Origin: Vicinamibacterales bacterium | GTDB lineage: Bacteria; Acidobacteriota; Vicinamibacteria; Vicinamibacterales; 2-12-FULL-66-21 | Direction: 5' to 3' | DNA: 64,000 nt | NCBI GenBank assembly: GCA_036258175.1 | Contig: DATAEE010000083.1 | Location: 27,752 to 91,751 of the forward strand | Shown here: one piece after another, positions 22,991 through 52,970 of the stretch | Position numbering within the stretch: position 1 is the first letter of the stretch | Layout: each line of letters begins with the position of its first letter | The notes under the pieces: model-generated | Seen by the model: only the letters and a program-made list of their open reading frames with translations | Told to the model about the DNA's origin: nothing | Databases searched by the model: none | Program-made: the position numbers and the translations under genes

Positions 22991-23014
22991 TCCCAATCTC
23001 CTGTGAACCAGAGG

Positions 23015-23410: not shown

Positions 23411-23503
23411 GTGCAAGCCTCCAGAAACAAGCACCCGGAGGTCGATTCCGGGCGCGGCGGAAATAAGCATATTTCGTGCCCGGCTGATCTATGCTGTGCA
23501 GCC

Positions 23504-36871: not shown

Positions 36872-38288
36872 CTATCTTGTATAGCTTTTTCTCAGTCCGC
36901 AGATAAATGGCCTTGCCCGCGACGGCTGGAGAGGCGAGCGACATTTCGCCGAGATCGTTGCGGAACAGCTCCGTATACGTATCCGCGGCGTCGAGCACGA
37001 ACGTCACGCCATCTTCGCTCAGAAAATAGATGCGTCGGCCCACCGCGGTGGGCGAGGCAGAGAACGTGTTGCCAGCGCCTCCCAGGCGCGCTTTGTAGAT
37101 CTGCTTGCCGGTCTTCGCGTCGAGGACGAGCAGGATGCCCGTGTCGTGCACGAGATACAGGCGGTTGTCGTGCGCAAGTGCTGACGGCGTGTACCCGGAC
37201 GCGCGCGGGTGCGACCAGAGAATGAAATCGTTGCTCGTCGCCTCGCCGGCGAGCGTGATATCGCCCGACGCGCCAGGCTTGATCGCGAGGAACGGCCGGT
37301 TCGCGTCGCCCTGTGAGCCGGTTCCGACATACAGCATGCCGTTTGCGGCGATGGGCGACGCTGTCGGCATCGCCATCCCTCCCGCGCGCCAGAGCTCCTG
37401 GCCCTGCAGGTCGTATGAGATGACGAACCCGTGTCCGGTGCTGACGATCTCCGTGCGGAGATCGTTTTTCCAGACGAGCGGCGTCATCCAGGACGAGCGC
37501 GGCAGGCCGGTTGAGGGACGCTCCGTCCGCCAGATTTCTTCGCCCGAGGCGGCGTCGAGCGCCGTGATGTAGGACGTCTGCTCGCTGTCGTGCAGCAGGT
37601 AGACGCGCCCGTCATGGACGACCGGCGAAGAGGCGGTGCCGAAGTCCAGATAGATCTTTTGCGGCGGCCACTGCTTCTTCCAGACGAGCGTGCCATCCAG
37701 CGTGTAACAGAACAGGCCGACGTTCTGGCCGAACGACACATACAGCCGCTGCCCGTCGGTAAAGGGCGTCTCGGACGCGTATGTGTTCTTGCGGTGCCGG
37801 CCGCCAGACGGCACGGCCTTGTGTGCTTCGCGCTCCCAGACGATCTTTCCCGAGCGCGCGTCGAGCGCGTAGACCATGTAGCGGAGGTCTTCGGACTCCT
37901 CGGGCGATTCCATGTCGCGCGCGCGGAGCTTCTTCATCAGCTTTTCGCCGGAGAGACCCGACGCGCTCAACTCGGCGATGTAGTCATTGCCGTAAAGCCC
38001 TGGGAGCGGTTGCTTGAACGGGCGGCGTCCGACGGCTGCTGTGACGAAGATCTGGTCGCCCCAGACGATCGGAGAGGACCATCCCCGGCCGGGGATCTCC
38101 GTCGCCCACTTAATCCCCGCCGTTTTCGACCAGCGCTCCGGGGCACTCGACGAAACGGCGATGCCGCTCTGATCGTGCCCGCGAAATCCCGGCCATGTTT
38201 CTTCCTTCGATGGGTCGGCGGTGGCCGCCGCCGCGCTTGATGCGAAAAGGAGCAGGGCCAGGACGGATCGCACGTGCAGCTTCAGCAT
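36861..38288 (-). CDS. Exported PQQ-like (BamB-like) beta-propeller repeat protein
   Basis: ORF trimmed to the ATG at 38288 (signal MLKLHVRSVLALLLFASSAAA). Recurrent propeller blades carry motifs of the type W...SSP.V..G..Y and ALDA.SG...W. Confidence 0.8.
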   Translation of the reverse strand: MLKLHVRSVLALLLFASSAAAATADPSKEETWPGFRGHDQSGIAVSSSAPERWSKTAGIKWATEIPGRGWSSPIVWGDQIFVTAAVGRRPFKQPLPGLYGNDYIAELSASGLSGEKLMKKLRARDMESPEESEDLRYMVYALDARSGKIVWEREAHKAVPSGGRHRKNTYASETPFTDGQRLYVSFGQNVGLFCYTLDGTLVWKKQWPPQKIYLDFGTASSPVVHDGRVYLLHDSEQTSYITALDAASGEEIWRTERPSTGLPRSSWMTPLVWKNDLRTEIVSTGHGFVISYDLQGQELWRAGGMAMPTASPIAANGMLYVGTGSQGDANRPFLAIKPGASGDITLAGEATSNDFILWSHPRASGYTPSALAHDNRLYLVHDTGILLVLDAKTGKQIYKARLGGAGNTFSASPTAVGRRIYFLSEDGVTFVLDAADTYTELFRNDLGEMSLASPAVAGKAIYLRTEKKLYKIGGE

Positions 38289-38367
38289 GGCGGCGAGCGT
38301 ATCACGGGCGGGTGGGCGGAGGACCGGTCGCGGGACGAAGCGCAGCCTCGCAGGGCTCCGCTCCAGA

Positions 38368-38829
38368 TTATTCAGATGGGCGTGGGAACGGCTGCACGCG
38401 GTAGCGGCCGTCACCCGCAAGGGCGCGACCGATTCGCGTGCCCAGCGCGCGGCGCTCGACAGTGCGCGGCGTCTCGCGGTGCGTCCGCGACGAGGCGGGG
38501 ACAGCGCGCGACCCGATCGCAAAGGTGGCGACCGCTGCGACCGACGTCGCGCCCGCCTTCGGCGCGTGAACGAGCAGCGCGCCGGTCTGAAGATCGCGCG
38601 ACACGAGCGCCGATGGCTCCTGCGACCGCAGCACGCCGGCGAGAGGAGGCACAAACACGATCGTGGAAATGACGCACACGGCTGCGAGCACGACCATCTC
38701 ACGCACGGCCTTCCGAGGCAGCCGGCCCGGGCTCACTGCGGCCGGCGGCTCCGGATGAACCGGCATGCCGGTAGTCCACGAAAGATCGCAGCCGTCGAGA
38801 CACGTCGACGTCGCGTGGGGGTTGTGCAT
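38368..38829 (-). CDS. Possible single-pass membrane protein
   Basis: High third-position GC in the TM segment EMVVLAAVCVISTIVFVPPL. Weak RBS and no family recognised. This is the only plausible ORF in a 730-nt gap. Confidence 0.3.
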   Translation of the reverse strand: MHNPHATSTCLDGCDLSWTTGMPVHPEPPAAVSPGRLPRKAVREMVVLAAVCVISTIVFVPPLAGVLRSQEPSALVSRDLQTGALLVHAPKAGATSVAAVATFAIGSRAVPASSRTHRETPRTVERRALGTRIGRALAGDGRYRVQPFPRPSE

Positions 38830-39021
38830 GGGCGCGATCCCTGCGAATCCTGCGCCAGAAAATCGAGGGATTACGAATTTGGGCAACCGCCCTGCCGGCA
38901 GGTCGTTGCGACCTTCGCAAACAAGATCGTCGCTCGCTGCGGACGCAGCGGTTTACTTCAATTCCCGTCGTTTTTACATTCCACGAAAATTGATGGTAGC
39001 TTCGTTACCCTGGGAGGCTCG

Positions 39022-39471
39022 ATGTTCCGCCGCACTTTCAGCGTGATTTTCGTCGTGATCGCCGCGTTCTCCGCCGGCGTGTACGCCGCGCAGCAGCTCG
39101 AACGGATCAATCCGCCAGGTCTCTCGACGCCGCAGACGTACACGCACGTCGTCAAAGCCGGCAAGACGCTTTACATCGCGGGCCAGGTCGGGGCAGGTCC
39201 GGACGGCACAGTTGCCGGGCCGGGAATGGCTGAACAACTCGATCGCGTGCTCACGAATCTCGGCCTTGCGCTGAAGTCGCAAGGCGCAGATTTCAGCCAC
39301 ATCGCGAAGATCACGATCTATACGACGAGCATCGCGGAGTTCCGCGAGGCCGCGAAGGTGCGCGAAAAGCACTTCGGCGCCAATCGCCCGGCGAGTACGC
39401 TCGTCCAGATCTCGCAGCTCGCGAATCCGGCCTTCAAGGTGGAGATCGAGGCCATAGCCGTCCTGCCCTAG
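39022..39471 (+). CDS. RidA/YjgF-family protein with an N-terminal signal/anchor sequence
   Basis: ATG 39022 with a GGGAGG RBS. MFRRTFSVIFVVIAAFSAGVYAAQQ is followed by the RidA core (LYIAGQVG...KITIYTT...PASTLVQISQLANPAFKVEIEAIA). Confidence 0.8.
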   Translation: MFRRTFSVIFVVIAAFSAGVYAAQQLERINPPGLSTPQTYTHVVKAGKTLYIAGQVGAGPDGTVAGPGMAEQLDRVLTNLGLALKSQGADFSHIAKITIYTTSIAEFREAAKVREKHFGANRPASTLVQISQLANPAFKVEIEAIAVLP

Positions 39472-39476
39472 CCGAA

Positions 39477-40715
39477 ATGACGCTGCTTCTCGTTCTTTCA
39501 CTGATTGCGCAAGCACCGGCGCCGGACTGCGCAGACTGGCGCGAGTGCCGCACGAAGGCGTTCGAGGCGGCGTCTCGCCAGGAGTACGAGGCGTTCCACG
39601 ATCTCGCATGGCGGGCGGTGCAGAAGGGACCGCCGCGCGATCCCGATCTCATGTATCTCGTGGCGCGCTCGCAGGCGTTGAGCGGCCGCCCGGCAGACGC
39701 GCTCGTGATGCTCAGGCGACTTGCCGAGATGAAGATTCCGACCGACGCGGTCTCGAGCGACGAGTTCGAGCGCGTGCGCGCCCTTCCAGGCTGGGCGGAC
39801 GTTGCAGCGCTTCTCGATAGCCGAAAGCCGGCCCTTGCGGCCGCCGAGGCCGCACCTCCGGTGCCGCCCGCCGCTCCGAACACCGTGGAGGACGCGCTGC
39901 GGTTCGACGCCATCTCGTTCGTCGCCGCCGGGCTCGGCTACGACGCAGTTTCGCGGCGGTTCGTCGTCGGAAACCGCGACGCCCGCAAGCTGTTCGTCGT
40001 GGACGAAGGATCGCGGCGCGCCAACGATCTGGTCGGGGCCGCCTCGGCAGGTTTCTACGCTATCGCCGGCCTCGACATCGATCCGCGGCGGGGCGATCTC
40101 TGGGTCGTCAGCGTGGAGGAAGGGCAGCCCGGAGCCGCGGCCGCTCACCGGCTCCAGCTCGTCTCCGGGCGGCTGCTCGAAACGCTCGCCGTCCCTGCGG
40201 CCCTTCTTCCCGTACGGTTCGCCGACGTCGCCGTCACCGACGACGGGGCGGTCCTGGCGCTCGACACCGCCGGCCGCCGGATTTTCCGCGCACGGTTCGG
40301 CGGTCACGCACTCGAAGTTGCCGCGACGCTTGATGTGCGCGATCCAACCAGCCTCGCGCCGAGCACTGCGACGGCGGTTTACGTCTCGCATGCAGGCGGT
40401 CTGGTAAGCGTCGATCTGGCGTCGAAGCGCGTTTCTGAGATCACCGCTCAGGACTCGATCGATCTCTCCGGCCTCGACCGCATCCGCATGAGCGGCGACT
40501 CGCTCGTAGCCGTACAACGCGGTACCGGCGACAGCCGGCGCATCGTCCGACTTGGCGTCAACTCGCGCGGGACCCGTGTTGTATCGTCGAAAATCCTGGA
40601 CGCCGCTGCGCCGGCGTCTGCCGCGACGGCCGCTACGGTGGCAGGAGACGCCTTCTACTACCTGTCGGCCGGTGCGTCGGGCGAAAAGGTGGTCAAGCGC
40701 GTCCCGCTGCGGTGA
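39477..40715 (+). CDS. Secreted hypothetical protein (helical N-terminal part plus a probable beta-propeller)
   Basis: Signal-like start MTLLLVLSLIAQAPA. No family recognised. Confidence 0.55.
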   Translation: MTLLLVLSLIAQAPAPDCADWRECRTKAFEAASRQEYEAFHDLAWRAVQKGPPRDPDLMYLVARSQALSGRPADALVMLRRLAEMKIPTDAVSSDEFERVRALPGWADVAALLDSRKPALAAAEAAPPVPPAAPNTVEDALRFDAISFVAAGLGYDAVSRRFVVGNRDARKLFVVDEGSRRANDLVGAASAGFYAIAGLDIDPRRGDLWVVSVEEGQPGAAAAHRLQLVSGRLLETLAVPAALLPVRFADVAVTDDGAVLALDTAGRRIFRARFGGHALEVAATLDVRDPTSLAPSTATAVYVSHAGGLVSVDLASKRVSEITAQDSIDLSGLDRIRMSGDSLVAVQRGTGDSRRIVRLGVNSRGTRVVSSKILDAAAPASAATAATVAGDAFYYLSAGASGEKVVKRVPLR

Positions 40716-41481
40716 AGGGAAGAAGGAACGTGATCGCGCGGCCGAGGCGCCGCGACCAGTCGTGTTCGGTGTGCCGGCCGCCCGGCTCCTCGACCCAAAG
40801 AAGAGACTCTCCCCAGCCCGCCCGCTCGAGCCCATCGGCCATCGCACGCGCGTCGCGCAGCGCCACCGCTCCCTCTTCGGTTCCCATGTCGAGATAAATG
40901 CGCGAGGCGGGTGTTCTGCGCGGGGACCTGAGATCGCCGATGACGTTGAAGATGCCGCGATCGCCGTGCCAGAACGCCGGGCTCATTGCCCCGGCGGCCC
41001 CGAATACGCGCGGCTGCTTGATGAGCGCGTACAGGCTGATGAGGCCTCCCATCGACGACCCGAGAATCGCGGTTGCGTCCCTTGCGCGGGACGTCCGGAA
41101 GCGACGGTCGATCTGCGGCTTGAGCGTCGACGCCAGGAACTTCACGTACCGGTCTCCCTTGCCTGGCCCGTAGCGACGATCCGCAAACGGGCTGTACTCG
41201 GTGATGCGGTCGCGTCCCCGGTGATGGATGCCGACGACGATCACTTCCAGCCCGTCGTCGGCGAGGTCGGCCAACACCTCCAAAAGACCCCAGGTGCCGC
41301 CAGCGAAGGCGGTCGCCGGGTCGCTGAGGTTCTGGCCGTCGTGCATGTACAGCACGGGATAGCGATCGCGACTCTCGTCGTACGAGGAGGGCAGGTAGAC
41401 GTCGACGGCCCGCCGGTTCCGCAGCTGCGGCGACCAGACAGCCGGCAGCGTGACTTTTGTGATTTGCGAGGCTCGGTTCAT
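40693..41481 (-). CDS. Alpha/beta-hydrolase, 'putative esterase' (esterase D / enterochelin-esterase-like) family
   Basis: YPVLYMHDGQN and the nucleophile elbow GSSMGG. ATGA overlap with the upstream ATP-grasp gene. Confidence 0.75.
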   Translation of the reverse strand: MNRASQITKVTLPAVWSPQLRNRRAVDVYLPSSYDESRDRYPVLYMHDGQNLSDPATAFAGGTWGLLEVLADLADDGLEVIVVGIHHRGRDRITEYSPFADRRYGPGKGDRYVKFLASTLKPQIDRRFRTSRARDATAILGSSMGGLISLYALIKQPRVFGAAGAMSPAFWHGDRGIFNVIGDLRSPRRTPASRIYLDMGTEEGAVALRDARAMADGLERAGWGESLLWVEEPGGRHTEHDWSRRLGRAITFLLPFTAAGRA

Positions 41482-42686
41482 TCAGTAGGACGTTCGGGCG
41501 CCGGCGCTGACGCGAAGAAATCGGCGTAGAACCGTTTGGCGTAGTCGTTGAGCAGGTGCTCGACTCGGCCTGCGTCTGGCGACGCGACGATCAGGCCTGC
41601 GTGGTAAGGCTTCTTCAGCCGCCGCACGATTTCCGGATCGGCAAACCTGGACAGGTCGGGCTCCTCCTGGCGTGCGAGCGTCAGGACGATGCCGGCCGAC
41701 CCGGTTGCAACCGGCGGCGCGTCGTACCGCCCGTCTTCGCCCGCGATCTCGAGCCGCGCCCACTCGCGCCAGAGGTTGGCACCGGTTGCCGCCTCGATCA
41801 CGTCGACGATGAAAGCGCCGCCGACGCGGGCCGACGTTTCGAGGAAGAACCACGCGCCGTCCGTGCCCCGGATGAACTCAGTGTGCGAGACTCCACGCTG
41901 CAGGCCGAGCCGCGACAGCACCTGTTGATTCACCGTCAGCAGCCCGCGCGCCTCGTCACCGTCGGACGGCAGGCGCCGCGTGATGAAAATCCCGCCCTCG
42001 TGGGCGACCTCCATCGGCGGTCGGCCATACTTCATCGCGACGGCGAAACGGATCTCGCCGCCGAACACGATGGAATCGACGTGATACACGTCGCCCTTGA
42101 CGAATCGCTCCAACAGGTAGTCCGCGCGCCCCTCGCCCGCGGCCTCGAGCGCCCGCCAGAGTTCCTCCGCGTTATTCACCTTCTTGATGCCGATTGCCGC
42201 GGCTGACGACCGCGGCTTCATGACCCACGGAGCGGGCACGGTTCCCGTCCACGACCGGATCTCCTCGTCGTTGACGAGCGCCACGAAGTCCGGCACGAGG
42301 ATGCCGCCGTTCCGAGCGCGCACGCGCATCGCGAGCTTGTCGCGGAAATGGCGGGCGGTCGTTTCTCCCATCCCCGGCGTGCGCAGGTACTCGCGGAGCA
42401 TGGCCGCGGTCTCGACGTCGAAATCGTCGAGCGCGACGATGCGATCGAGCCGTTCGGCGCGGGCGATGCCGGCAACCCTGCGGCGGAGTGCGTCGGGGGT
42501 GATATCGCGCGGTACCGTGTGGATGGCGTCGATCGACTCGCGCGGCCAGGCCGCATCCGCAAGCGAGTCGGCGGTCAGGAGCAGCACGCGGCACCCCTGG
42601 CGCCGGCACTCGCGGAGAAACTCTTCGCCCTTGAGGTACGTTGCGACCGCCAGCACGGTGAGCGGTCGTCCCGCCTCGGTCATCAT
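41478..42686 (-). CDS. ATP-grasp-domain amide ligase
   Basis: 402 aa. WVMKPRSSAAAIGIKKV, GDVYHVDSIV and HTEFIRGTDGAWFFLETSARVGG. Confidence 0.8.
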   Translation of the reverse strand: MMTEAGRPLTVLAVATYLKGEEFLRECRRQGCRVLLLTADSLADAAWPRESIDAIHTVPRDITPDALRRRVAGIARAERLDRIVALDDFDVETAAMLREYLRTPGMGETTARHFRDKLAMRVRARNGGILVPDFVALVNDEEIRSWTGTVPAPWVMKPRSSAAAIGIKKVNNAEELWRALEAAGEGRADYLLERFVKGDVYHVDSIVFGGEIRFAVAMKYGRPPMEVAHEGGIFITRRLPSDGDEARGLLTVNQQVLSRLGLQRGVSHTEFIRGTDGAWFFLETSARVGGAFIVDVIEAATGANLWREWARLEIAGEDGRYDAPPVATGSAGIVLTLARQEEPDLSRFADPEIVRRLKKPYHAGLIVASPDAGRVEHLLNDYAKRFYADFFASAPAPERPTE

Positions 42687-42737
42687 TCTTTTATACTCCG
42701 GATTCTGCGTTGATCTGAGCTAATCTGCGCTTCCACC

Positions 42738-43469
42738 ATGAGGGACTATCACCGCTGGTACAGCCATCGCCTTGGCCGCGAGATGGGCGTGAACGTGTAC
42801 GGCCACTGGGGGCCGCCGATGATCGTCTTTCCCACGACCGGCGGCGACGAGTGGGAGTACGAACGGCAGGGCGTCATCGCGTCGATCTGGCCGGCGATCG
42901 AGGACGGGCGCGTCAAGGTGTTCTGCATCAACACGAATCACGGCGATTCGTTCGGCAACGGCGGCGCGCATCCCCTCCACCGAAGCTGGATGCAGAAGCA
43001 GTACGACGAGTACGTCCGGGCCGAAATCGTCCCGTTCGTGCACTCGCACTGCCGCACGGCGGATGTGCCCATCTGGACGATGGGCGCGTCGCTCGGCGCG
43101 TACCATGCGGCGAACACGCTGTTCAAGTATCCGGACCTGGTGAAGCGCTGCTACGCGCTCTCCGGCGTGTTCGACATGAAGCGATCGATGAACGGCCACT
43201 ACGACGACAACTTCTATTTCAATAACCCGGTCGACTATCTGCAGAATCTCTCCGACTCCTGGGCGCTCGGGAATCTTGCCAGCTGCGAGATCCACATCGC
43301 GACCGGAACGGGTCCGTGGGAGAACAGCGGCGAGTCGTATCGGCTCTCAGGAATTCTCGCGAGCCGCGGCGTCAGACATCACCTCGACGACTGGGGGCCG
43401 CTCGGGGGCCACGACTGGCCCTTCTGGAAACACCAGCTGCGCGTGTATCTGGGAATTGAAGGGGCCTGA
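42738..43469 (+). CDS. Alpha/beta-hydrolase, esterase-family protein (COG4947-like)
   Basis: 243 aa with GASLGAYHAANTLFKYP as the nucleophile elbow. Divergent from the ATP-grasp gene and convergent with the aminopeptidase gene. Confidence 0.7.
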   Translation: MRDYHRWYSHRLGREMGVNVYGHWGPPMIVFPTTGGDEWEYERQGVIASIWPAIEDGRVKVFCINTNHGDSFGNGGAHPLHRSWMQKQYDEYVRAEIVPFVHSHCRTADVPIWTMGASLGAYHAANTLFKYPDLVKRCYALSGVFDMKRSMNGHYDDNFYFNNPVDYLQNLSDSWALGNLASCEIHIATGTGPWENSGESYRLSGILASRGVRHHLDDWGPLGGHDWPFWKHQLRVYLGIEGA

Positions 43470-43471
43470 TC

Positions 43472-44497
43472 CTACAGCCCAAACCGATCGAGGCGGTACT
43501 TTCCCTTGTCGATGACCTGCTCGTCATCGATCCAGACGTCGCACTCCCGCGTCAGCACGTCTACATGGGTTGTCGATTTCCAGTCGGCACCGGTCTGGCT
43601 GCCGTACGGATCGCCGAACGCGATGTGCACGCCTGGGACCTTTTCGTCCTGGAGCAGGATGCCGATCATGCGATCGACACCGAGGTTGGTGCCGAAGGCG
43701 AGCTCGCCGACACGGTCGCTGTGCTCGTCGGCGTGGCAGTAATCCCAGAACTCGCGCTCGAGATCGTGGCGGGGTGAGTCCGCCGCGACCAGGCGTCCGC
43801 CTTCGATGTGCAGCGTGAGCGGCGTGTCGTGGAGGTCGCCGTATTTCGGGCCGAAGTAGTCGCCTGCAGGTCCGTCGCAGACGAAGACGCCGTCGACCGA
43901 TGCCGGCGTGGTAAAGACCTCGCCGGCGGGAAGATTCGACCAGTACCGCGTGCTGATGAGGCCGCTCGTCTTGATCCAGTCCCATTCGGGATTGAAGGTG
44001 GCGGTGAACGCCGTGCCACGCGACGTGGAGACCCGCAGGCGCGACGCCCGCCGCATTCGCTCGCGCAGCCGTTCGCTCAAGCGATCGACGAGCCGGTAGT
44101 CGGCGCGCATGCCCTCCATCATGATTTGCGGCGTGACGCCGACCATGTGCGCGTAGCGCATCATCCGGCGCTCGACGAGGCCGACGATCGCCATCCGGGC
44201 CTTGAGCTCTCCCTCGAGCGGCTGCACGCACAGGATGCCGGCATCTGCCTGGCCGAGCGCGTCGAGAACCGCCGGCGGCGCGTCAGTCAAAGGTCGTCGG
44301 GCGACAGCCTCGAGAAGGAGCCGGTCCGGGTGCGCGCCGGCGGAGTCGAGCGCGGCGCTCAGGCTCGCCGCGACCTCACGGCTCGCAGCGTCGGCCATGA
44401 GCGCGACGCGCTCGCCTGGTTGAACCGCGAGGCACACGTTAACGGCGTTGCGGGCACCTTCGAGCAGCTCGGGGAGGACAGGGCCGAAATCGGTCAT
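43472..44497 (-). CDS. M29-family (AmpS/PepS-like) aminopeptidase
   Basis: ORF trimmed to the ATG at 44497. NLPAGEVFTTP, ELAFGTN and GVHIAFGDPYG...HVD. Confidence 0.75.
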   Translation of the reverse strand: MTDFGPVLPELLEGARNAVNVCLAVQPGERVALMADAASREVAASLSAALDSAGAHPDRLLLEAVARRPLTDAPPAVLDALGQADAGILCVQPLEGELKARMAIVGLVERRMMRYAHMVGVTPQIMMEGMRADYRLVDRLSERLRERMRRASRLRVSTSRGTAFTATFNPEWDWIKTSGLISTRYWSNLPAGEVFTTPASVDGVFVCDGPAGDYFGPKYGDLHDTPLTLHIEGGRLVAADSPRHDLEREFWDYCHADEHSDRVGELAFGTNLGVDRMIGILLQDEKVPGVHIAFGDPYGSQTGADWKSTTHVDVLTRECDVWIDDEQVIDKGKYRLDRFGL

Positions 44498-44517
44498 TGC
44501 GATTAATTGTACGACAC

Positions 44518-45858
44518 CTACCCAAGAACAAAAGCCGGCACCTGGCCGCCGCCCGATGTGACATTGGCGAGGCCCGAGGCGCTCAGCCGGGTCAGGTAGC
44601 CGCCGAGCCGTCCGCGAAACAGATACGGCGCGAAGTCGACGAGCATTTCGCGCTCGACGACCGCGCCCTCCTCGCACATCGCGAACCGCTCGCGGCGGAC
44701 GGGGATGCGTGCCTGCACGATCCAGGCGCGCTCCGGTTCGCGAACCGCCCGTTCGAGTGCGCGATCCCACGTGCTAGCGTCGGTCTCCCAGCCCAGCGTG
44801 ACGCCGCTGCCGCCGTATTCGTCGCTGGGCTTGACGACCATTTCTTCGCGGTGAGCGCGGACGTACGAGAGCAAGTCGATCTTTTGGCCGTCGCGAGTCG
44901 TTTCTGATTGAGTGAGCCGGCGCGTCCAGGGCACGTGACGGCGGATCAGTTCACGCTCCGTACGGTCGAACAACCCCTGGTGCCGATCGTCGGTGAGCAC
45001 CGCGAAAAACGTCTTTTTGTGAGGAAGCTTGCACCGGAACGTATTGGCGACGCATGCAAGACGCTGCCTGTAAGCCTCCACGAGAAGCCGGCAATCGTCG
45101 TGGCGGGCGACGATGTCATTGATGAGGACGCGGCGATAGACGAGATCGACCGCGCGTCCAGCCGCGATCAGCCGGCCGTTCGCGATTTCCAGCTCCCGCG
45201 GATCGGCGACGACGGTCGGTGTCCCGAGAACGGAGAATGCGGCGGCGAGCAGCTCGAACTCGCTCCATGTCGGCACGTCGCGCCAATCCACAATGGCGAT
45301 GACCGGCGCGGACGCGGTGCCGCCCCATTCCCGGAAGCTGGTGAGGAGCGCGACGTGCAGCCGCTCGATCGACTTGTGCATCGAAACCGCGAACTGCTCG
45401 CGGAACGGCGTCATCGCCGGCAGCGACTCGAACACCTCGCCCAGCCGCTGGGCGTAGCCGGGACCGGCGGGAGATTCGGCGTTGTACTCGGCGAACCAGA
45501 GCGAGTCCGGCAGGATGAACGCGTCGGCGCGCGAGGCTGTGCTCGCGGTCTGGTATCCGGGATCGAGGGCTGCGAGCCGCAGCTCGGCCTCGGACAGTCC
45601 CAGTTCCGCGGTGAGGGCAGGCGTCTCGAGCGCCAGCCGCGCGACCCGCTCACCAATCGCGGCGAGCCCCTCAGCGGCAGTGCGCACGCGCGCTTCGTCC
45701 GAGGCGGGGAGAAAGAACGGCCGGAGGAATGGGCAGAGGAGCCGGCCGCCGAACGTCAGCCGCTCGTCGCGCATGCGCACCGCGAGCTCTGCGCACGCGC
45801 GCTCGCCTGAAGCGGCCGCGAACAGGTCCTGCCAGATGCGTCCCGGATCGGCGGTCAC
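44518..45858 (-). CDS. Circularly permuted ATP-grasp type 2 protein
   Basis: Trimmed to the GTG at 45858, which forms a GTGA overlap with the upstream stop. The C-terminal core is MVVKPSDEYGGSGVTLGW...WIVQARI...GLANVTSGGGQVPAFVLG. Confidence 0.7.
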   Translation of the reverse strand: MTADPGRIWQDLFAAASGERACAELAVRMRDERLTFGGRLLCPFLRPFFLPASDEARVRTAAEGLAAIGERVARLALETPALTAELGLSEAELRLAALDPGYQTASTASRADAFILPDSLWFAEYNAESPAGPGYAQRLGEVFESLPAMTPFREQFAVSMHKSIERLHVALLTSFREWGGTASAPVIAIVDWRDVPTWSEFELLAAAFSVLGTPTVVADPRELEIANGRLIAAGRAVDLVYRRVLINDIVARHDDCRLLVEAYRQRLACVANTFRCKLPHKKTFFAVLTDDRHQGLFDRTERELIRRHVPWTRRLTQSETTRDGQKIDLLSYVRAHREEMVVKPSDEYGGSGVTLGWETDASTWDRALERAVREPERAWIVQARIPVRRERFAMCEEGAVVEREMLVDFAPYLFRGRLGGYLTRLSASGLANVTSGGGQVPAFVLG

Positions 45859-46811
45859 AGGCCGACGACGCTTTGGGCCGGTCCGATCCCGAGCATCTCG
45901 GCCCATCGCGGCCACGATTGTTCCGGGCGCCCGCGGAGCGCGCGATCGATCACCAGATCGGACATCTTCTCGACGGCCATCTCGAAATAGAACGGCGTAA
46001 TCCGATCCCGCTCGAAGTCGGGCGCGGGGTTCAGAAAATCGATCGCGTAGGGGATGTCCCCCTTGATCGCGAATTCGATCGTGTTCATCTCGTACCCGAG
46101 CGCCGTGTTGATCGTCTGCGCGTCACGCACGACCCGCGCGCCGAGCTCCGGCGGCAGGTAGTTGTGATCCACGATGTAGCGCCGCTCGCGAGGGTCATAC
46201 GCGACCGGGACGATGTCGGACTTGCCGAACGTGAAACAGCGAACGTACCGATCGAAGTCGACGAACTCCTGGAGCGTCATGCAGTACGGCCCGGTGCCGT
46301 CGTAGGCGCGCAGCAGCTCGTCGCGGTTCTGGACCTTGTACACATGCTTCCAGCCGCCGCCGGAGTACGGCTTGAGGATTGCGGGCCGCCCAACGTAGTC
46401 GAGGATCGCGTCCCAGTCCACCGGATACCCAAGGTTGCGCAGCGATTCAGACGTGAGATCGAATTCGGCTGGATACGATTTCTGGGGCAGCACGACCGTT
46501 TTCGGGATTGCGATTCCCATCCGCGCGGCGACCGCGTAGTTGAAGAACTTGTCGTCCGCCGTCCACCAGAACGGGTTGTTGATGACGTAGGTTCCCGCGA
46601 GCATCGCGTGCTTCAGGTACGCGCGGTAGTACTCGACCTCGTGCGAGATCCTGTCGACGATCACGCGATAGGCAGGAGGCTCGCCCATGCGCGTGCCGGT
46701 CAGCGTCACGAACTCGGCAGTGATCCCGTCGCGCCGGCCCTTCTGGTTGACACGTTCGAGAAAGGCAGGTGGGAACGCGTATTCCCGCCCGCACATCAGG
46801 CCAATCTTCAT
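45855..46811 (-). CDS. ATP-grasp protein (RimK / glutathione-synthetase-fold-like)
   Basis: 318 aa. PAILKPYSGGGWKHVYKV and NTIEFAIKGDIPYAIDFLNPAPD. Confidence 0.75.
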   Translation of the reverse strand: MKIGLMCGREYAFPPAFLERVNQKGRRDGITAEFVTLTGTRMGEPPAYRVIVDRISHEVEYYRAYLKHAMLAGTYVINNPFWWTADDKFFNYAVAARMGIAIPKTVVLPQKSYPAEFDLTSESLRNLGYPVDWDAILDYVGRPAILKPYSGGGWKHVYKVQNRDELLRAYDGTGPYCMTLQEFVDFDRYVRCFTFGKSDIVPVAYDPRERRYIVDHNYLPPELGARVVRDAQTINTALGYEMNTIEFAIKGDIPYAIDFLNPAPDFERDRITPFYFEMAVEKMSDLVIDRALRGRPEQSWPRWAEMLGIGPAQSVVGL

Positions 46812-46823
46812 CCCTCAGGCTCC

Positions 46824-47972
46824 CTACGTTGCGATCGGCGATGAATCGTTCTGTTCGACCCCGCGCCGCGTCTCGTCCACGATGAAGCGCACGACCGAAC
46901 GGAGGTCGCCGGTTTCGCGGAAGACCTGGAGCTGACGATCGGCGCTGGTTCCGTCGCGAAGAATCGTCCGGACGTAGCCGACTTCCTCCCGGCATCCCAA
47001 GTCGTCCAGCACGTCGTCGACGAACTCGAGCAGTTCGAGCGCGAGATCGCGCATCGGAACCTCGACTCGGCGCCCGAAGTCGATGAGCTTGCCGTCGATG
47101 CCCCAACGTGCGGCGCGCCACTTGTTCTCCTCGATCAGCGTGCGACGGTACAGGCGGAAGCCCTGATTGCGCTGATAGAGCCGGTGGAGCTTCACGATGA
47201 TCGCCTGCGCGAGCGCGGCGATCGCGAGCGATGCGCGAGGATCCGTCGGCACGTCGCAAATGCGGAACTCCAGCGTGCCGAAGCTGGGATGGGGCCGCAA
47301 ATCCCACCAGATCTTCTTCGGATTGTCGATGCAGTTCAGCTGCACGAGCAGCGCCGCGTAGCTCTCGTACTCGCCCCACGATCCGAAATGATCGGGAATC
47401 CCGGTTCGAGGGAACCTCCGGAAGACCGCGGTGCGATACGACTTGAGACCCGTGTCGCGGCCGGCCCAGAACGGCGAGCTGGTCGAGAGCGCGAGCAGGT
47501 GAGGTAGGAAGTACCGCGCAGCGTTCATCAGGTCGATTGCTTCCGACCGATCGGCCACCGCGACGTGGACGTGCAGACCGAAAATCAGCAGCGACCGGGC
47601 GAGTTGCTGAAGCTCTTCGACGAGGTGCTCGTAACGCTCCCCCGGCGAGAGGATCTGATCGATCCAGTTCGAAAACGGGTGCGTCCCGGCCGCCGCGACC
47701 CGCAGGCCGACGCGATCGGCCGCCGCGACGAGCTCCCGCCGCATGCGCAGAATCTCCGACCGGAGCTGGTAGACGTCCTCGCAGATCCGGGTGCCGACCT
47801 CGACGATTGACTGGTGCAGCTCGGGCTTGATCTGATCGCCAAGCGAAGAAGCGCCGGAGGCCAGGAGCTCCGAGACGTGGGATCGGAGCTCCCACGTGTC
47901 GGGATCGACGATCTGGAATTCTTCCTCGACGCCGACGGTGAAGGCCTGCGGCATGGCGGCGACGCCTATCAT
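46824..47972 (-). CDS. Carboxylate-amine ligase, GCS2 (YbdK-like) family
   Basis: FTVGVEEEFQIVD, GLHVHVAV, SSPFWAGRDTG and DLRPHPSFGTLEFRICD. An alternative start is ATG 47954. Confidence 0.85.
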   Translation of the reverse strand: MIGVAAMPQAFTVGVEEEFQIVDPDTWELRSHVSELLASGASSLGDQIKPELHQSIVEVGTRICEDVYQLRSEILRMRRELVAAADRVGLRVAAAGTHPFSNWIDQILSPGERYEHLVEELQQLARSLLIFGLHVHVAVADRSEAIDLMNAARYFLPHLLALSTSSPFWAGRDTGLKSYRTAVFRRFPRTGIPDHFGSWGEYESYAALLVQLNCIDNPKKIWWDLRPHPSFGTLEFRICDVPTDPRASLAIAALAQAIIVKLHRLYQRNQGFRLYRRTLIEENKWRAARWGIDGKLIDFGRRVEVPMRDLALELLEFVDDVLDDLGCREEVGYVRTILRDGTSADRQLQVFRETGDLRSVVRFIVDETRRGVEQNDSSPIAT

Positions 47973-48056
47973 ATACTCCGGTCGTCATTGCCTGAGCGGA
48001 GGCTTCAATGAGTGGTCGTCATCATTTTTTTATGCTCGCGGGGCCCCACCCCCGCT

Positions 48057-48102
48057 CGTCCTTCGGCAAGCTCAGGACGACCCTGAGCGAAGTCGAAGGG
48101 TC
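48057..48102. repeat. REP-like nested hairpin (ccttcg..gctcagg-acgac-cctgagc..cgaagg)
   Basis: Inner stem 48070-48076 with 48082-48088; outer stem 48060-48065 with 48094-48099. It translates to the LRQAQDDPE / FAQGRPE pseudo-peptides typical of a widespread intergenic repeat. Confidence 0.7.
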
Positions 48103-48166
48103 GCGCGCGCTCGCCGGTCCGGCTTCGCCGGACTTCCCTCCGGCGGCTCGCGCGGGCCGCAGGCGC

Positions 48167-51100
48167 TTGCGTGTCCTCGTCGCTGCGCTGGTCGTCCCTT
48201 TGGCTGCAGCTGCGCAGCCGGCGCGTCCGCCCGAACCGGACACGGCCGCCGAGCCACCGAGCTTCCGCTACATGGGTCCGCCGAGCGCGGGCCGGATCGC
48301 CGCGATAGCCGGCATTCCAGGCGATCCCGAGACGTACTACGCGGGCGCGGCGTCCGGCGGCGTCTGGAAGACCACTGACGGCGGGAAGACGTTCGAACCG
48401 ATCTTCGACGCGCAGAGCGTGCAGGCCATCGGCGCGCTTGCCCTCGCACCATCCGATCCAAAAACGATCTGGGCAGGCACGGGTGAAGCGTGGGTGATCC
48501 GTCCGAGCGATGTCATGGGCGACGGCATCTACAAGTCCACTGACGCCGGGAAGACCTGGAACAACGTCGGCCTCGCGGAGACCGGTCGTATCGGGCGGAT
48601 CGTCGTCCATCCGACGAACGCCAACATCGTGTATGCCTGCACCCTCGGCCGCGCGACCGGCCCGCAGCAGGAGCGCGGTGTCTACAAGACGACCGATGGC
48701 GGTGTGTCGTGGCGTCGTGTGCTCTTCGTCAATCCCGACACCGGTTGTTCAGGCCTGTCGATGGACGCGAAGAATCCGGATGTGCTCGTGGCTGGCACGT
48801 GGCAGGTCGTGATGCGGACCTGGGCAATGCTCAGCGGCGGTCCCGGCAGCGACGTCTACAAATCGACCGATGCGGGCGAGACCTGGAAGCGGGTCGAGCA
48901 TTCGGGACTGTTCAAGCCGCCGGTCGGGAAGATCGACGTCGCGTTTGCGCCAACCAACTCGAATCGTGTGTACGCCCTCGCGCAGACGTCGAACCAGGGA
49001 TCGCTCTGGCGCTCGGACGACGGGGGGACGTCGTGGAAAGTCGTGAGCTGGGACCGAACACTGATCGGCCGCGCCGGTTACTACATCCGGCTCGCGATCT
49101 CGCCGACCGACGAGAACGAAGTGTTCGTCATGAGCAGCAGCCCGCACCGATCGACCGACGGTGGCATGACGTTCGTCGAGTACCGCGGCGGCTGCGGCGA
49201 TTGTCACGACATGTGGATCGATCCCACGAACGCGGACCGATGGGTCTCGACCGGCGACAACGAGATGGGGATCACGACCGATCACGGCCGCACGTTTTCG
49301 CGCATCGAGCTGCCGATTGGCCAGATGTACCACGTCGCCGTCGATAACCGGATGCCGTACTGGATCTACAGCAATCGTCAGGATGACGGGACGATGCGCG
49401 GCCGCAGCGATGCGCCGGTCTCGGTGTCGAACGTGCCGTCGTACGCTCCGCGCCGGGCTGCCGCGGCGAGTGGGCGCGGTGGCGGCGGCGGCGGCGGTTT
49501 TGGCGCCGCGGCAGTCCCACCGCCATGGGACCAGGGCATCGGTGGTTGCGAATCCGGCTTCACGATTCCCGATCACGCCGATCCAGAGATCATCTGGTCC
49601 AGCTGCTACGGCAATAAGCTGACCCGGTACGATCATCGGCGGCGCGTCGCGCGCTCGGTCAGTCCATGGATGATCTCGCTGGATTCACCGCCGACGGACG
49701 TCAAGTATCGATGCCACTGGACTCCGCCGATCGCCATCGACCCGTTTGATTCAAAAACGGTCTACTACGGCTGCCAGGTCATTTTCCGCACATCGAGCGG
49801 CGGCCAGTCGTGGGACGTGATCAGTCCCGATCTCTCGACGCAGGACCCCTCGAAGATCGTGTCATCGGGTGGCGTCGTCGGCGACAACCTTGGTCAGTTC
49901 TATGGAGAGGTCGTGTTCGCGATCGCTCCATCGCCGATCCAGAAAGGACTCATCTGGGCGGGAACCAACGACGGGAAGATCTGGTACACGAACGACGCGG
50001 GCAAGAGCTGGAACGACCTGTCGAAGAACGTCAGCGGCATGCCGCCATGGGGAACGATTACGAAGATCGAGCCGTCGCATTTCGATCCGGCCGTCGCGTA
50101 CGTGGTCGTGGACTACCACATCATGGACAACCGCGACCCGTTCATCTATAAGACGGCGGATTTCGGACGGACCTGGACGAAAATCAGCGACGGCCTGCCT
50201 CAAGGACATCCGCTGTCGTATGCCATCTCGCTCGCTGAGAACCCGAACCGGAAGGGCATGCTGTTCGCGGGCACCGGCAACGGGTTCTTCTATTCGCTCG
50301 ATGACGGCAAGCGCTGGACGAGATATCAGGAAGGGCTGCCCGCCGCGCCCGTCACCTGGATCGTCGTGCAGAAAGATCATCACGATGTCGTCGTGTCGAC
50401 GTACGGGCGGGGTCTCCACGTCATGCCGGACATCACGACGCTCGAGCAGAGCGATCGCGTCGAGACGACCGCTGACGCATTCCTGTATCAACCGCGTCCC
50501 GGTTTCCGCTTCGCCCGTAACGGCCGCGCGGAGTTCCTGTACACGCTCAAGACGGAGGGTCCGGTGTCGTTCGCGATTACCGACCCGGAGGGGCGGCTGA
50601 TTCGGTCCCTCGAGACGAAGGGGCGGGTCGGGTTGAACCGCGCGCGATGGGATCTGCGCGGCGAGGCTCCGAAGCAAGTCGAGCTGCGAACGCTGCCGCC
50701 GGACAACCCGTTCATCTGGGATGAGCCGCGATTCAAGGGTCGCGACACGCGACCGATCATCCATTGGGGCATTCAACAGGCGATGCGCGTCGGGCCGCTG
50801 GCGGCGCCCGGCTCGTACACCGTCCGCATGACGGCGAACGGCAAGTCCGAGACACGAACATTCGATGTGCTGAAGGATCCGTCGATTACGTCGGACACCG
50901 ATGACCTCCTCGCGTCCATCGCGCTGCAGACCCGCATCCGGGACGCCATGAACGACACCGTCGACATGGTCAACCGGGTCGAGGTGATGCGGAAACAGAT
51001 CGAAGATCTGCTGAAGACCCACAAAGGGAAGGCCGATATCGAGAAGCCCCTGCGCGCGCTCGACGCCTCGACGATGGATGTCGAGCTGCAAATGGTGTCC

Positions 51101-51394
51101 AAGTCGGATCTCCACAGCGACGACAAGTGGTACGTGGAGGCCTACAAGATCTACATGAACCTGATCTGGCTGAACGGGGCCGTCGGGACGGGAGCCGGCG
51201 ACGAGGCGGGTGGAGCGGACAACCGGCCGACCGACGCGCAGATCAAGGTGATGGAAATGCTCGAACAGCAGCTGGCAAAGGCAAAGAAAGACTTCCAGCG
51301 GCTGATCGATCAGGATGTTTTGACGTTCAACCGTGCGATGGCGCGCAGGGGCATTTCGATTACAACCGGGACGACGACAACGAGCCAGCCTTGA
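48167..51394 (+). CDS. BNR/Asp-box repeat, sortilin/VPS10-like exported protein
   Basis: Repeated S-x-D-x-G-x-T-W boxes (TTDGGKTFE, STDAGKTWN, TTDGGVSWR, STDAGETWK, SDDGGTSWK...). I prefer the TTG at 48167 ((M)RVLVAALVVPLAAAAQ signal) over 48008, because the upstream 53 codons run through the REP element. Confidence 0.8.
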   Translation: MRVLVAALVVPLAAAAQPARPPEPDTAAEPPSFRYMGPPSAGRIAAIAGIPGDPETYYAGAASGGVWKTTDGGKTFEPIFDAQSVQAIGALALAPSDPKTIWAGTGEAWVIRPSDVMGDGIYKSTDAGKTWNNVGLAETGRIGRIVVHPTNANIVYACTLGRATGPQQERGVYKTTDGGVSWRRVLFVNPDTGCSGLSMDAKNPDVLVAGTWQVVMRTWAMLSGGPGSDVYKSTDAGETWKRVEHSGLFKPPVGKIDVAFAPTNSNRVYALAQTSNQGSLWRSDDGGTSWKVVSWDRTLIGRAGYYIRLAISPTDENEVFVMSSSPHRSTDGGMTFVEYRGGCGDCHDMWIDPTNADRWVSTGDNEMGITTDHGRTFSRIELPIGQMYHVAVDNRMPYWIYSNRQDDGTMRGRSDAPVSVSNVPSYAPRRAAAASGRGGGGGGGFGAAAVPPPWDQGIGGCESGFTIPDHADPEIIWSSCYGNKLTRYDHRRRVARSVSPWMISLDSPPTDVKYRCHWTPPIAIDPFDSKTVYYGCQVIFRTSSGGQSWDVISPDLSTQDPSKIVSSGGVVGDNLGQFYGEVVFAIAPSPIQKGLIWAGTNDGKIWYTNDAGKSWNDLSKNVSGMPPWGTITKIEPSHFDPAVAYVVVDYHIMDNRDPFIYKTADFGRTWTKISDGLPQGHPLSYAISLAENPNRKGMLFAGTGNGFFYSLDDGKRWTRYQEGLPAAPVTWIVVQKDHHDVVVSTYGRGLHVMPDITTLEQSDRVETTADAFLYQPRPGFRFARNGRAEFLYTLKTEGPVSFAITDPEGRLIRSLETKGRVGLNRARWDLRGEAPKQVELRTLPPDNPFIWDEPRFKGRDTRPIIHWGIQQAMRVGPLAAPGSYTVRMTANGKSETRTFDVLKDPSITSDTDDLLASIALQTRIRDAMNDTVDMVNRVEVMRKQIEDLLKTHKGKADIEKPLRALDASTMDVELQMVSKSDLHSDDKWYVEAYKIYMNLIWLNGAVGTGAGDEAGGADNRPTDAQIKVMEMLEQQLAKAKKDFQRLIDQDVLTFNRAMARRGISITTGTTTTSQP

Positions 51395-51724: not shown

Positions 51725-52570
51725 ATGGATCGCATCGATCCCGCGACGACGATCGGAGACGTGCACCTGACGATCTCCGACCTGGATCGATCCAGCGCGT
51801 TTTTCACCGAGCGGCTCGGGTTCCGCGTCCATCGTCGCGACAGCAACTCGGCCGTGCTCGGCGCGGGTGGTGTCGACATGCTCGCGGTGATGCAGTCGCC
51901 CGGTGCGCCGCGCGTTCGTGGCACGACAGGTCTCTACCATTTCGCGATCCTGGTGCCCTCTCGCGTGGATCTCTCAAAGGCGCTGCGCCGGTTGATCGAG
52001 ACCAACACCCGCATGCAGGGTGTGGCCGATCACGGGGTGAGCGAGGCCTTGTACCTTGCCGACCCGGACGGGAATGGGATCGAGATCTATCGGGACCGGC
52101 CGCGCGCGGAGTGGCCGTTCAGCGACGGTCAGCTCGAGATGACGACTGATCCGCTCGATCTCGATGATCTCCTCGCCGCAGGACCGCCGCAGACCGGAGC
52201 GCCCTATCTGCTGCCCGACGGCACCATCATCGGGCACGTGCATCTGCACGTGTCGAATCTCGGGGACGCTGAAACGTTCTACGTCGGGCTGCTCGGGTTC
52301 GATCTGATGCAGCGCTTCGGTGCGAGCGCGCTGTTCGTTTCAGCCGGCGGCTATCACCATCACGTCGGCCTCAACACGTGGGCCGGTGTCGGAGCGCCGC
52401 CGCCGCCGGCTGACGCGATAGGGCTCCGGCACTTCGTCGTCCGACTTCCCGGCGCCGCTTCGCGAGAGAAAGTCGTCGCTCGGCTCCGTGCAGCCAACGT
52501 TCCCGTCCACCCCACCAAGGAAGGAGTACTCGTGCGCGATCCTGCCGGCAACTCCATTCTCCTGAGCTGA
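51725..52570 (+). CDS. VOC-family (glyoxalase / extradiol dioxygenase-like, two-module) protein
   Basis: Two repeats of the VOC module ([24 protein letters not shown]... and [25 protein letters not shown]...). Confidence 0.8.
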
Positions 52571-52574
52571 CGCC

Positions 52575-52970
52575 ATGACCAGGCTGAACATCTCGAGCGG
52601 TCGTCCGTGGGAATCGATCGTAGGTTACTCGAGGGCCGTCCGCGTCGGCCGTCACGTGCAGGTGTCGGGCACGACGGCGACCGACGAGAACGGAAAGGTT
52701 GTCGGCGCCGGCGATCCGTACTTACAGACTCGCCGCACGCTCGCCAATATCGAGTGGGCGCTCAAGCAGGCCGGTGCGACCCTCGGCGACGTCGTCCGGA
52801 CGCGCATCTACGTCACGGACATTTCCCAGTGGGAGGCGATCGGCCGAGCCCACGGTGAGGTATTCGGTGAGATCCGGCCCGCGACCGCTATGGTTCAGGT
52901 CAGCCGCCTGATTGATCCAACGATGCTGGTGGAGATCGAAGCCGAGGCGTATATTACCGCGTCCGATTGA
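52575..52970 (+). CDS. RidA/YjgF-family protein
   Basis: [17 protein letters not shown]...VRTRIYVTD...[23 protein letters not shown]. Confidence 0.8.

Follow-up and report, generated by a model that had tools for sequence, protein, structure and literature searches.

The window analyzed here is a stretch of 64,000 nucleotides (nt) from a Vicinamibacterales bacterium (GenBank assembly GCA_036258175.1, contig DATAEE010000083.1, positions 27,752 to 91,751 of the forward strand), and our subject is a cluster of seven genes in it, at positions 40693-47972, that encode predicted ligases and hydrolases. The window has a high GC content (~65%), and its nearest relatives are metagenome-assembled genomes from Vicinamibacterales and other Acidobacteriota. 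We assigned proteins to families by Pfam and NCBIfam profile searches, judged against the cut-offs of the models. On the minus strand, a core operon begins with GCS2 (46824-47972, 382 amino acids (aa) as listed), a predicted YbdK-type carboxylate-amine ligase, and continues with a putative classical, non-permuted ATP-grasp ligase that we call RimK-like (45855-46811, 318 aa), a predicted circularly permuted ATP-grasp ligase of the CP_ATPgrasp_2 family (CPAG; 44518-45858, 446 aa), and a hydrolase resembling the M29-family metallo-aminopeptidases (M29; 43472-44497, 341 aa). Next comes a plus-strand gene for EstB (42738-43469, 243 aa), an alpha/beta serine hydrolase of the PF00756 esterase family. 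Beyond it lies an accessory pair on the minus strand: AG4 (41478-42686, 402 aa), a second ATP-grasp enzyme of the L-amino-acid-ligase type, and EstA (40693-41481, 262 aa), a second PF00756 serine hydrolase.

The genes are tightly packed. An earlier description of this locus (the original prediction) had claimed these seven open reading frames (ORFs) and a particular set of junctions; all seven ORFs were found, and each junction could be read in the sequence. GCS2 and the RimK-like gene are separated by 12 nt, the RimK-like gene and CPAG share a GTGA start/stop overlap (45855-45858), and CPAG is followed after 20 nt by the ATG of M29 at 44497. M29 and EstB are convergent with a gap of 2 nt, and EstB and AG4 are divergent with a gap of 51 nt. 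AG4 and EstA share an ATGA overlap (41478-41481), through which EstA is, as the sequence reads, translationally coupled to AG4. In some relatives (loci L085 and L087) EstB is co-directional with the core operon, and all six genes lie on one strand. By eye, there was no obvious signal peptide at the N-terminus of any of the seven proteins, and all of them appear to be cytoplasmic.

We compared this arrangement with that in other genomes. A pattern scan, with one genome per species, confirmed 555 stretches encoding relatives of CPAG, and the best 80 of the 555, almost all from Acidobacteriota, were fetched with their flanks. The presence or absence of each gene was scored by tblastn of the window proteins against all fetched loci. 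There were 63 loci with sufficient flank, and removal of three duplicates (L001 = L005, L004 = L018, L002 ≈ L003) left 60 non-redundant loci. GCS2, RimK-like and CPAG were present in all 60, in constant order. M29 was present in 57 and EstB in 55. EstA was found in 40 loci and AG4 in 32, never without EstA, with the pair in either order. Catalytic motifs were conserved at 95% or more in all seven proteins. Since the same genes recur in 60 non-redundant loci whose flanks are unrelated, the arrangement is not due to chance. The cluster forms a genuine unit, complete in itself, with three layers: the three ligases, the two hydrolases, and an optional ligase/esterase pair. The seven genes are thus not conserved together as a single unit: the ligase core is invariant, M29 and EstB are nearly constant, and AG4 and EstA are optional.

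The few loci that lacked M29 or EstB next to CPAG had signs of disruption. One (L051, 12313-13422) has an IS110-family transposase directly downstream. In two others, M29 (L060), or M29 plus EstB (L073), is shifted ~7 kb by genes inserted downstream of CPAG, including a DUF899 gene in L060 and a MarR-family gene in L073.

To look for further members of the unit, we clustered the flanking ORFs without preselection, those of at least 100 aa from 81 loci and small ORFs from 79 loci. No further family of at least 100 aa was present in more than 11 of the 81 loci, and no small-ORF family in more than 12 of the 79, the most frequent of the latter resembling frame shadows of known genes. There was no conserved transporter, regulator or small precursor gene across the loci examined. 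The families found in 8-11 of the 81 loci were MFS, Amidohydro_3, MacB, SthA, a 2Fe-2S ferredoxin and a molybdopterin-binding subunit. An MFS transporter gene lies upstream of GCS2 in nine loci and directly adjacent to it in three, and an Amidohydro_3 protein is encoded near the cluster in ten. SthA, the 2Fe-2S protein and the molybdopterin subunit form a clade-specific flanking block. We considered the Pyr_redox_2 gene in eight loci as a candidate thiol reductase and rejected it: it encodes the transhydrogenase SthA (646 bits), and genes of the aldehyde-oxidase type lie between it and the cluster.

GCS2 matched PF04107 at 222 bits and the NCBIfam carboxylate-amine ligase model NF010039 at 518 bits (cut-off 371), the sole NCBIfam model that it passed. 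Its similarity to YbdK in the PDB (1r8g/1tt4) was high (E = 1e-50). Scores against the Glu-Cys ligase models were all below the cut-offs (387 vs 409, 300 vs 332, 286 vs 427, and 76 vs 249). GCS2 is therefore, by sequence, a YbdK-type carboxylate-amine ligase.

CPAG scored 35.4 bits against PF14403 (CP_ATPgrasp_2), just above the gathering score of 32, and 23.5 bits against CP_ATPgrasp_1. All 120 relatives of CPAG among the matches listed carry a precomputed PF14403 match. There was no match of CPAG to a glutathione-synthetase model in Pfam or NCBIfam, nor to GSP_synth in Pfam. A search of the PDB with the single sequence recovered no solved relative, and a profile of the family recovered 3n6x only. 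The AlphaFold model of CPAG (predicted local distance difference test (pLDDT) 79, predicted template modeling score (pTM) 0.84) was more informative. Its best Foldseek matches, which span the full length, were to glutathione and homoglutathione synthetases of eukaryotes (E = 1e-15, TM 0.65-0.68), followed by 3n6x, Cp1B, YjfC/YgiC, glutathionylspermidine synthetase (GspS) and trypanothione synthetase (TryS). The top 50 matches consisted of glutathione synthetases, GspS/TryS, YgiC/YjfC, 3n6x and Cp1B. Of these, glutathione synthetase and the GspS group have the permuted ATP-grasp arrangement. Where the reaction of a fold relative is established, the enzyme joins the carboxylate of a small molecule to an amino acid or amine. 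We conclude from the model that CPAG is a circularly permuted ATP-grasp enzyme with a predicted glutathione-synthetase-like fold. Two motifs have parallels in human glutathione synthetase: ExNxxS, by eye, and the K-P...E-x-G-G loop, by hhalign. A residue-level mapping onto the human enzyme was tried and dropped, and the substrate-binding residues are left unclaimed, because hhalign aligned the Lys/Gly-loop region only.

The RimK-like protein is the most conserved protein in the cluster, with 73-95% identity across loci labelled Vicinamibacterales, Acidiferrales and Terriglobales, and it keeps the motifs KP, SGGGWK and EF..NPAPD at 95% or more. It has no Pfam match, and no match to a glutathione-synthetase model in Pfam or NCBIfam. 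The original prediction had called it a RimK-like ATP-grasp protein, and membership in the RimK family did not survive the profile search: it scored 34.5 bits against rimK_fam (TIGR00768; cut-off 143.4) and 25 bits against the LysX model (cut-off 276). It is an ATP-grasp protein by its motifs (KP...SGGGWK) and by a low-confidence fold match. By sequence it is not assignable to RimK, and the name as used here describes motifs, not a family. Matches in the PDB were weak (D-Ala-D-Ala ligase and PurK). Its structural model was poor (pLDDT 56) because the alignment was shallow (78-92% identity), and a fold search with it returned ATP-grasp proteins in general, including RimK, LysX/ArgX, and macrocyclases of ribosomally synthesized and post-translationally modified peptides (RiPPs). 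We therefore abandoned structure as a route to a subfamily, the fold matches being generic and profile searches of the PDB no help. The protein appears to belong to an undescribed ATP-grasp family that lacks a Pfam model. This family is small, comprising 1660 clusters (50% identity) in a set of 1.84 billion proteins.

Distant members of the family, at 33-51% identity, lie without GCS2 or CPAG, in two isolates of Chloroflexota type (Litorilinea, Thermobaculum) and in unclassified metagenome contigs. Outside the acidobacterial loci, the contexts of the family (loci L088, L090, L092 and L096-L099) are unrelated. The Thermobaculum member adjoins MsrA/rhodanese, the Litorilinea member adjoins GNAT, glycosyltransferase and PMT_2 genes, and others lie beside LpxB-like genes or, in L098, beside mannosylglycerate-synthase-like and HAD genes. 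In L099, a frameshift-rich long-read contig, a RimK-like gene of 40% identity is directly followed by a frameshifted GCS2 (9001-10944), the reverse of the order in the window, and an AG4 homologue of 51% identity lies 8 kb off (18211-19413). There is no CPAG, M29 or EstB in L099, and this gene content suggests that the ligases may combine as modules. An apparent fusion of RimK-like and GCS2 (P0380) was discarded as a frameshift-ridden gene call on a low-quality contig; it shows adjacency in a different order only.

The remaining four assignments varied in strength. M29 scored 50 bits against PF02073 (cut-off 27), over residues 149-301 only, and its nearest sequence in the PDB was NicX (7cn3), a dioxygenase with the M29 fold (E = 4e-4). 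The motifs PAGEVFTTP, GELAFGTN, PGVH.AFGDPYG and TH.DVL are at least 95% conserved in 71 orthologues, and they contain Glu, Glu, His and His-Asp residues that we take, from knowledge of the family, to be the metal ligands typical of M29 aminopeptidases. EstB scored 51 bits against PF00756, and its GASxG nucleophile elbow and GGHDWP motif are invariant. Neither the single sequence nor a profile found a close solved structure for EstB in the PDB. Its weak, generic PF00756-type matches, including Esterase D and S-formylglutathione hydrolase (E = 0.2-1), were unusable for choosing a subfamily. EstA scored 106 bits against PF00756, has a conserved GSSxGG motif, and is related to IroE-like siderophore esterases and feruloyl esterases in the PDB (E = 1e-8 to 1e-11). 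AG4 matched ATP-grasp_4 and ATPgrasp_N in Pfam. In the PDB it resembles L-amino-acid ligases (4wd3, E = 1e-16; 3vot, E = 1e-9; BacD, E = 5e-3), a likeness for which no curated family cut-off exists. The families named in the original prediction (GCS2, CP_ATPgrasp_2, Peptidase_M29, esterase and ATP-grasp) were thus recovered by profile search for all but the RimK-like protein.

Upstream sequences suggested a possible shared mode of expression and a correction to the start of GCS2. An alignment of 67 upstream regions of GCS2 revealed a -10-like box (TATGAT, TATCAT or TAGAAT) that is conserved at two alternative spacings. In the window and the other loci of Vicinamibacterales type, the box lies 7-13 nt before the start codon of GCS2; in the remaining loci it lies ~45 nt upstream and is followed by a GGAGG-like site. 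With a strict pattern, a TATGAT/TATCAT-type box was present at one of these two fixed distances in 40 of the 67 loci, and counts of the motif per 20-nt bin had peaks of 24 and 22, compared to 6 or fewer elsewhere. In the window, the promoter-like element GGAGTATATGAT (47968..47979, minus strand) places TATGAT 13 nt upstream of an ATG at 47954. The ORF beginning at 47972 is present as claimed. Because the ATG at 47972 falls inside the conserved box, ATG 47954 (MPQAFTVGVEEEF...) is the likelier start, giving a protein of 376 aa. The position of the box ahead of ATG 47954 implies a leader that is very short or absent.

The octamer GGAGTATA occurs at two sites only in the 64-kb window, 42692-42699 and 47972-47979, both on the minus strand, with 0.2 expected. 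One site is directly upstream of GCS2 and the other directly upstream of AG4. The second copy (42690..42699, minus strand) includes a -10-like TATAAA 3 nt upstream of the start codon of AG4, and in related loci boxes of the AGTATA type directly adjoin the start of AG4. This suggests similar promoter control of the GCS2 and AG4 transcription units. There was no Rfam match to a known RNA leader or riboswitch at E ≤ 1 within 39000-49500, and a generic promoter and terminator scan gave nothing above chance.

The genes flanking the cluster in the window were considered as parts of the system and rejected, as they are kept only in the three closest relatives. On one side, a 412-aa protein (39477-40715, plus strand) has a hydrophobic N-terminus and no Pfam or PADLOC match, and the 3' end of its gene overlaps the convergent EstA by 23 nt. 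On the other, a large protein with BNR/sortilin-Vps10 repeats is encoded divergently from GCS2 (48008-51394, plus strand); its ORF as listed probably starts ~52 codons too early, because the gene call in the relative is 1076 aa and a signal-peptide-like stretch begins near residue 50 of the ORF. Two RidA/L-PSP genes, a gene for a two-domain glyoxalase-fold protein, and an arginase-family gene (38221-39471, with RidA in the last ~110 codons; 51725-52570; 52575-52970; 52983-53951) are syntenic in the closest relatives only and are therefore probably unrelated to the cluster. A role of the seven proteins and the 412-aa protein in anti-phage defence was dropped, there being no PADLOC matches.

Other genes in the window lie further away. 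A CysN/CysC fusion (GTP_EFTU plus APS kinase; 31448-34332, plus strand) is found ~8 kb from the cluster, after a 325-aa ORF that is probably CysD. The region around 16817-25165 is rich in peptide-processing genes, with a 1041-aa S9 prolyl-oligopeptidase-family protein (16817-19942, plus strand), a 681-aa protein with an N-terminal C39-like cysteine peptidase domain (20951-22996, minus strand), and an Amidohydro_3 protein (23003-25165, plus strand). In one acidobacterial clade (L002/L003, 7089-7807), a 104-aa ORF and a gene for a 125-aa Transglut_core3 protein, with a domain like that of lasso-peptide B2 proteins, immediately precede GCS2 and have the same orientation.

Taken together, the results point to stepwise, ribosome-independent synthesis in the cytoplasm of a small peptide-like metabolite of ~3-4 residues, encoded with its own hydrolases. 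We put the probability of this reading at roughly 55%. In such a pathway, GCS2 would form an amide between a carboxylate, for which the gamma-carboxyl of glutamate is the most plausible candidate, and the amine of a second amino acid. CPAG would phosphorylate the C-terminal carboxylate of the dipeptide and add a further amino acid or an amine. The RimK-like enzyme would add one more residue or make a building block. M29 and EstB would then act on the product or its intermediates, by trimming, recycling or proof-reading, in much the way that dipeptidases and amidohydrolases act on glutathione. AG4 and EstA, an optional elaboration in about half of the lineages, would add or remodel a dipeptide unit. 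The sequence analysis itself shows the gene families, the intact catalytic motifs, the strict co-conservation of the three ligases, the glutathione-synthetase-like fold and the lack of a peptide or carrier substrate encoded with them; the step order, the gamma-glutamyl chemistry and what the hydrolases do are inferred. GCS2 beside a ligase with the fold of the eukaryotic glutathione synthetases is reminiscent of the two-step logic of glutathione synthesis, an analogy and not a claim of membership. The original prediction had seen a build-and-trim pathway here; the family assignments uphold its reading of the cluster as a ribosome-independent amide-ligase system, and the analogy with the two steps of glutathione synthesis makes that reading sharper.

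Distant homologues of CPAG (~25% identity) on plasmids have comparable company. On a Selenomonas plasmid, genes for a GCS2 protein and a CPAG homologue flank a MATE efflux pump gene. A Bacillus thuringiensis plasmid carries an AMP-binding enzyme, two CPAG-like genes and a MATE pump, and a Streptomyces plasmid carries an M20 peptidase, a CPAG homologue and an L-amino-acid-ligase-type ATP-grasp gene. The pairings of GCS2 with CPAG, and of CPAG with an L-amino-acid ligase, therefore recur at deep divergence. The exporters beside such pairings would be as expected for small-molecule products.

Several points weigh against stepwise synthesis of a small peptide. We know of no established substrate or product for any protein of the cluster or for a close relative, and literature searches found no experimental characterization of the family or the cluster, in agreement with what had been said before. 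The identity of CPAG to the glutathione synthetases is only 13-16%, and hhalign recovered just the Lys/Gly-loop region. The RimK-like protein has no subfamily placement, and the named models closest to it, RimK and LysX, represent enzymes that modify proteins. YbdK itself has a weak, possibly non-physiological Glu-Cys ligase activity, which makes the gamma-glutamyl assignment an analogy. An operon that combines genes for synthesis with genes for hydrolysis could just as well serve salvage or turnover. Finally, no transporter, regulator or tailoring enzyme is consistently linked to the cluster, which is unusual for a secreted natural product.

Other explanations were weighed, two of which concern known chemistry of related enzymes. 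RimK modifies S6 and LysX modifies LysW, and the RimK-like enzyme and CPAG could in the same manner extend the C-terminus or side chains of a protein encoded elsewhere, with M29 and the esterases detaching the tag. The nearest named models and the fold matches of the 318-aa ligase agree with such tagging. The survey of Iyer, Aravind and colleagues reportedly proposed peptide tags for related systems. The peptide-tag idea has also been restated in general form (PMC4431377). We nevertheless consider tagging unlikely, because there is no conserved carrier or precursor gene or small ORF with the cluster (the gaps in the window are at most 51 nt) and the solved relatives of CPAG and AG4 whose reaction is known all use small-molecule substrates. 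In addition, the RimK and LysX matches are far below the cut-offs, the model used in the fold search was poor, and there is no rpsF or lysW-type neighbour in the loci examined. The protein tag that the original prediction had left as an option is thus disfavoured, although tagging may still be conceivable for the RimK-like enzyme. The GCS2 family includes genuine Glu-Cys ligases, and the best fold matches and the motif-level likeness of CPAG (loop by hhalign, the rest by eye) are to glutathione synthetases, so the cluster could make glutathione or a very close thiol analogue with non-canonical enzymes. The canonical gshA-B genes are reported to be absent from Acidobacteria, which leaves room for an alternative route (PMC6282198). 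Against this, some Acidobacteria are predicted to have bacillithiol genes and use that thiol (PMC6282198); for a new thiol, neither the absence nor the prediction argues one way or the other. A plain glutathione pathway is improbable because GCS2 passes only the generic carboxylate-amine ligase model and CPAG has no glutathione-synthetase match in Pfam, because it offers no place for the third ligase, which is invariant and highly conserved, and because no thiol-disulfide reductase, glutaredoxin or S-transferase is linked to the cluster.

Two further explanations we regard as still less probable. If the ligases re-ligate or amidate existing molecules, such as peptidoglycan peptides or the uronic acids of envelope glycans, with the hydrolases supplying substrates, then the joint occurrence of hydrolases and ligases is accounted for. 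So are the glycosyltransferase, LpxB-like, PMT_2 and sugar-nucleotide genes that adjoin distant RimK-like members in other phyla, and a PMT-family gene that lies divergently upstream of GCS2 in one acidobacterial clade. These contexts, however, belong to homologues of 33-51% identity without GCS2 and CPAG, the PMT linkage is confined to that one clade, given that none of the flank families was present in more than 11 of 81 loci, and all seven proteins appear to be cytoplasmic, so salvage, repair or envelope modification seems very unlikely. The most improbable explanation in our judgment is a storage or homopolymeric poly-amino acid, like cyanophycin or poly-glutamate, with the hydrolases as depolymerases. 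RimK-type enzymes can make poly-alpha-glutamate, ligases and peptidases share one operon here, and conservation this high is more in keeping with a physiological role than with a niche one. But there is no cyanophycin-synthetase architecture (TIGR02068, 18 bits vs 850, from AG4 only), profile searches and flank clustering gave no cyanophycinase (S51) and no PgsBCA-type genes, and the number of different ligases, three or four, fits a defined hetero-oligomer better than a repeat polymer.

Returning to stepwise synthesis of a small peptide, the very strong conservation of the ligases, the RimK-like protein above all, suggests a core physiological product rather than a sporadic antibiotic. More specifically, and only tentatively, Acidobacteriota might make a new glutathione-like gamma-glutamyl tri- or tetrapeptide, possibly a low-molecular-weight thiol or a cofactor, through GCS2, CPAG and the RimK-like enzyme, with turnover by M29 and the esterases; we think this rather unlikely. 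If it were true, a physiological function would have been found jointly for the YbdK-type ligases and the CP_ATPgrasp_2 family. Acidobacteriota are among the most abundant soil bacteria, and their small-molecule chemistry is largely unexplored. Identification of the product would give a first function to the CP_ATPgrasp_2 family, to a YbdK-type GCS2 ligase, and to an ATP-grasp family without a Pfam model. The product could be a new redox buffer, cofactor or compatible solute, and the stand-alone peptide ligases of the cluster may serve biocatalysis.

The original prediction required that the ligases lie outside characterized pathways, and comparison with known systems bears this out: none reaches the cut-off for Glu-Cys ligase, RimK, LysX, D-Ala-D-Ala ligase or cyanophycin synthetase. 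The best score against the Ddl/Van models was 35 bits, with cut-offs of 243-775. Cyanophycin synthetase is a fusion of ATP-grasp and Mur-ligase-like parts of ~870 aa, and the proteins here are 318-446 aa. No RiPP precursor peptide of the graspetide or microviridin type is conserved among the small-ORF families. RimK, LysX and ArgX share the classical ATP-grasp fold with the 318-aa ligase, and RimK and LysX are its nearest named models, but its scores are far below their cut-offs and there is no S6 or LysW partner.

The likeness to glutathione synthesis is closer in plan. There, as here, a GCS-family ligase is followed by a permuted ligase with the fold of eukaryotic-type glutathione synthetase (for example 2hgs, 5oes, 3kal), and the Mg/ATP motifs are common to both. 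The cluster differs in its low sequence identity, in the curated models that its proteins do not reach, in having a third ligase and three hydrolases, and in the absence of thiol-handling partners. GspS, TryS, and E. coli YgiC and YjfC likewise have the permuted ATP-grasp fold predicted for CPAG, and distant plasmid homologues of CPAG are annotated as members of the GspS family. In contrast to GspS and TryS, the cluster has no CHAP amidase domain, CPAG has no GSP_synth match, and the gene neighbours are different.

The nearest precedent is a set of gene neighbourhoods. The amidoligase survey of Iyer, Abhiman, Burroughs and Aravind (Mol Biosyst 2009) is said to have predicted neighbourhoods built around CP_ATPgrasp_2 (PF14403), with Roseiflexus RoseRS_2616 as the prototype. 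Reportedly, and in line with the Pfam description, these combine a permuted ATP-grasp enzyme, a GCS2-type COOH-NH2 ligase and an alpha/beta-hydrolase, and peptide synthesis was predicted for them. The cluster has each of these features: the PF14403 match, the predicted permuted fold, an adjacent GCS2 in all 60 loci, and in 55 of them a linked alpha/beta-hydrolase, EstB, with a predicted peptidase role. It differs in having M29, an invariant extra ATP-grasp enzyme without a Pfam model, and the optional L-amino-acid-ligase/esterase pair; a GAT-II amidohydrolase and an M20 peptidase were absent among the flank families found in at least 8 of 81 loci, with M29 instead. The cluster is a variation on a type of neighbourhood that was predicted computationally in 2009 and is experimentally uncharacterized.

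In its use of successive stand-alone ATP-dependent ligases, the cluster also resembles peptide pathways that are independent of non-ribosomal peptide synthetases. The rhizocticin and bacilysin pathways use L-amino-acid ligases, which AG4 matches by sequence. The E-64 pathway uses the ATP-grasp enzyme Cp1B, a structural match of CPAG, together with an amide-bond synthetase (PMC12568646), and the pseudouridimycin pathway uses the stand-alone ligases PumK and PumM (PMC6586884). The clusters for those pathways include exporters as well as warhead or tailoring enzymes, and their taxonomic distribution is patchy, whereas the operon described here consists of ligases and hydrolases only and is highly conserved across acidobacterial orders.

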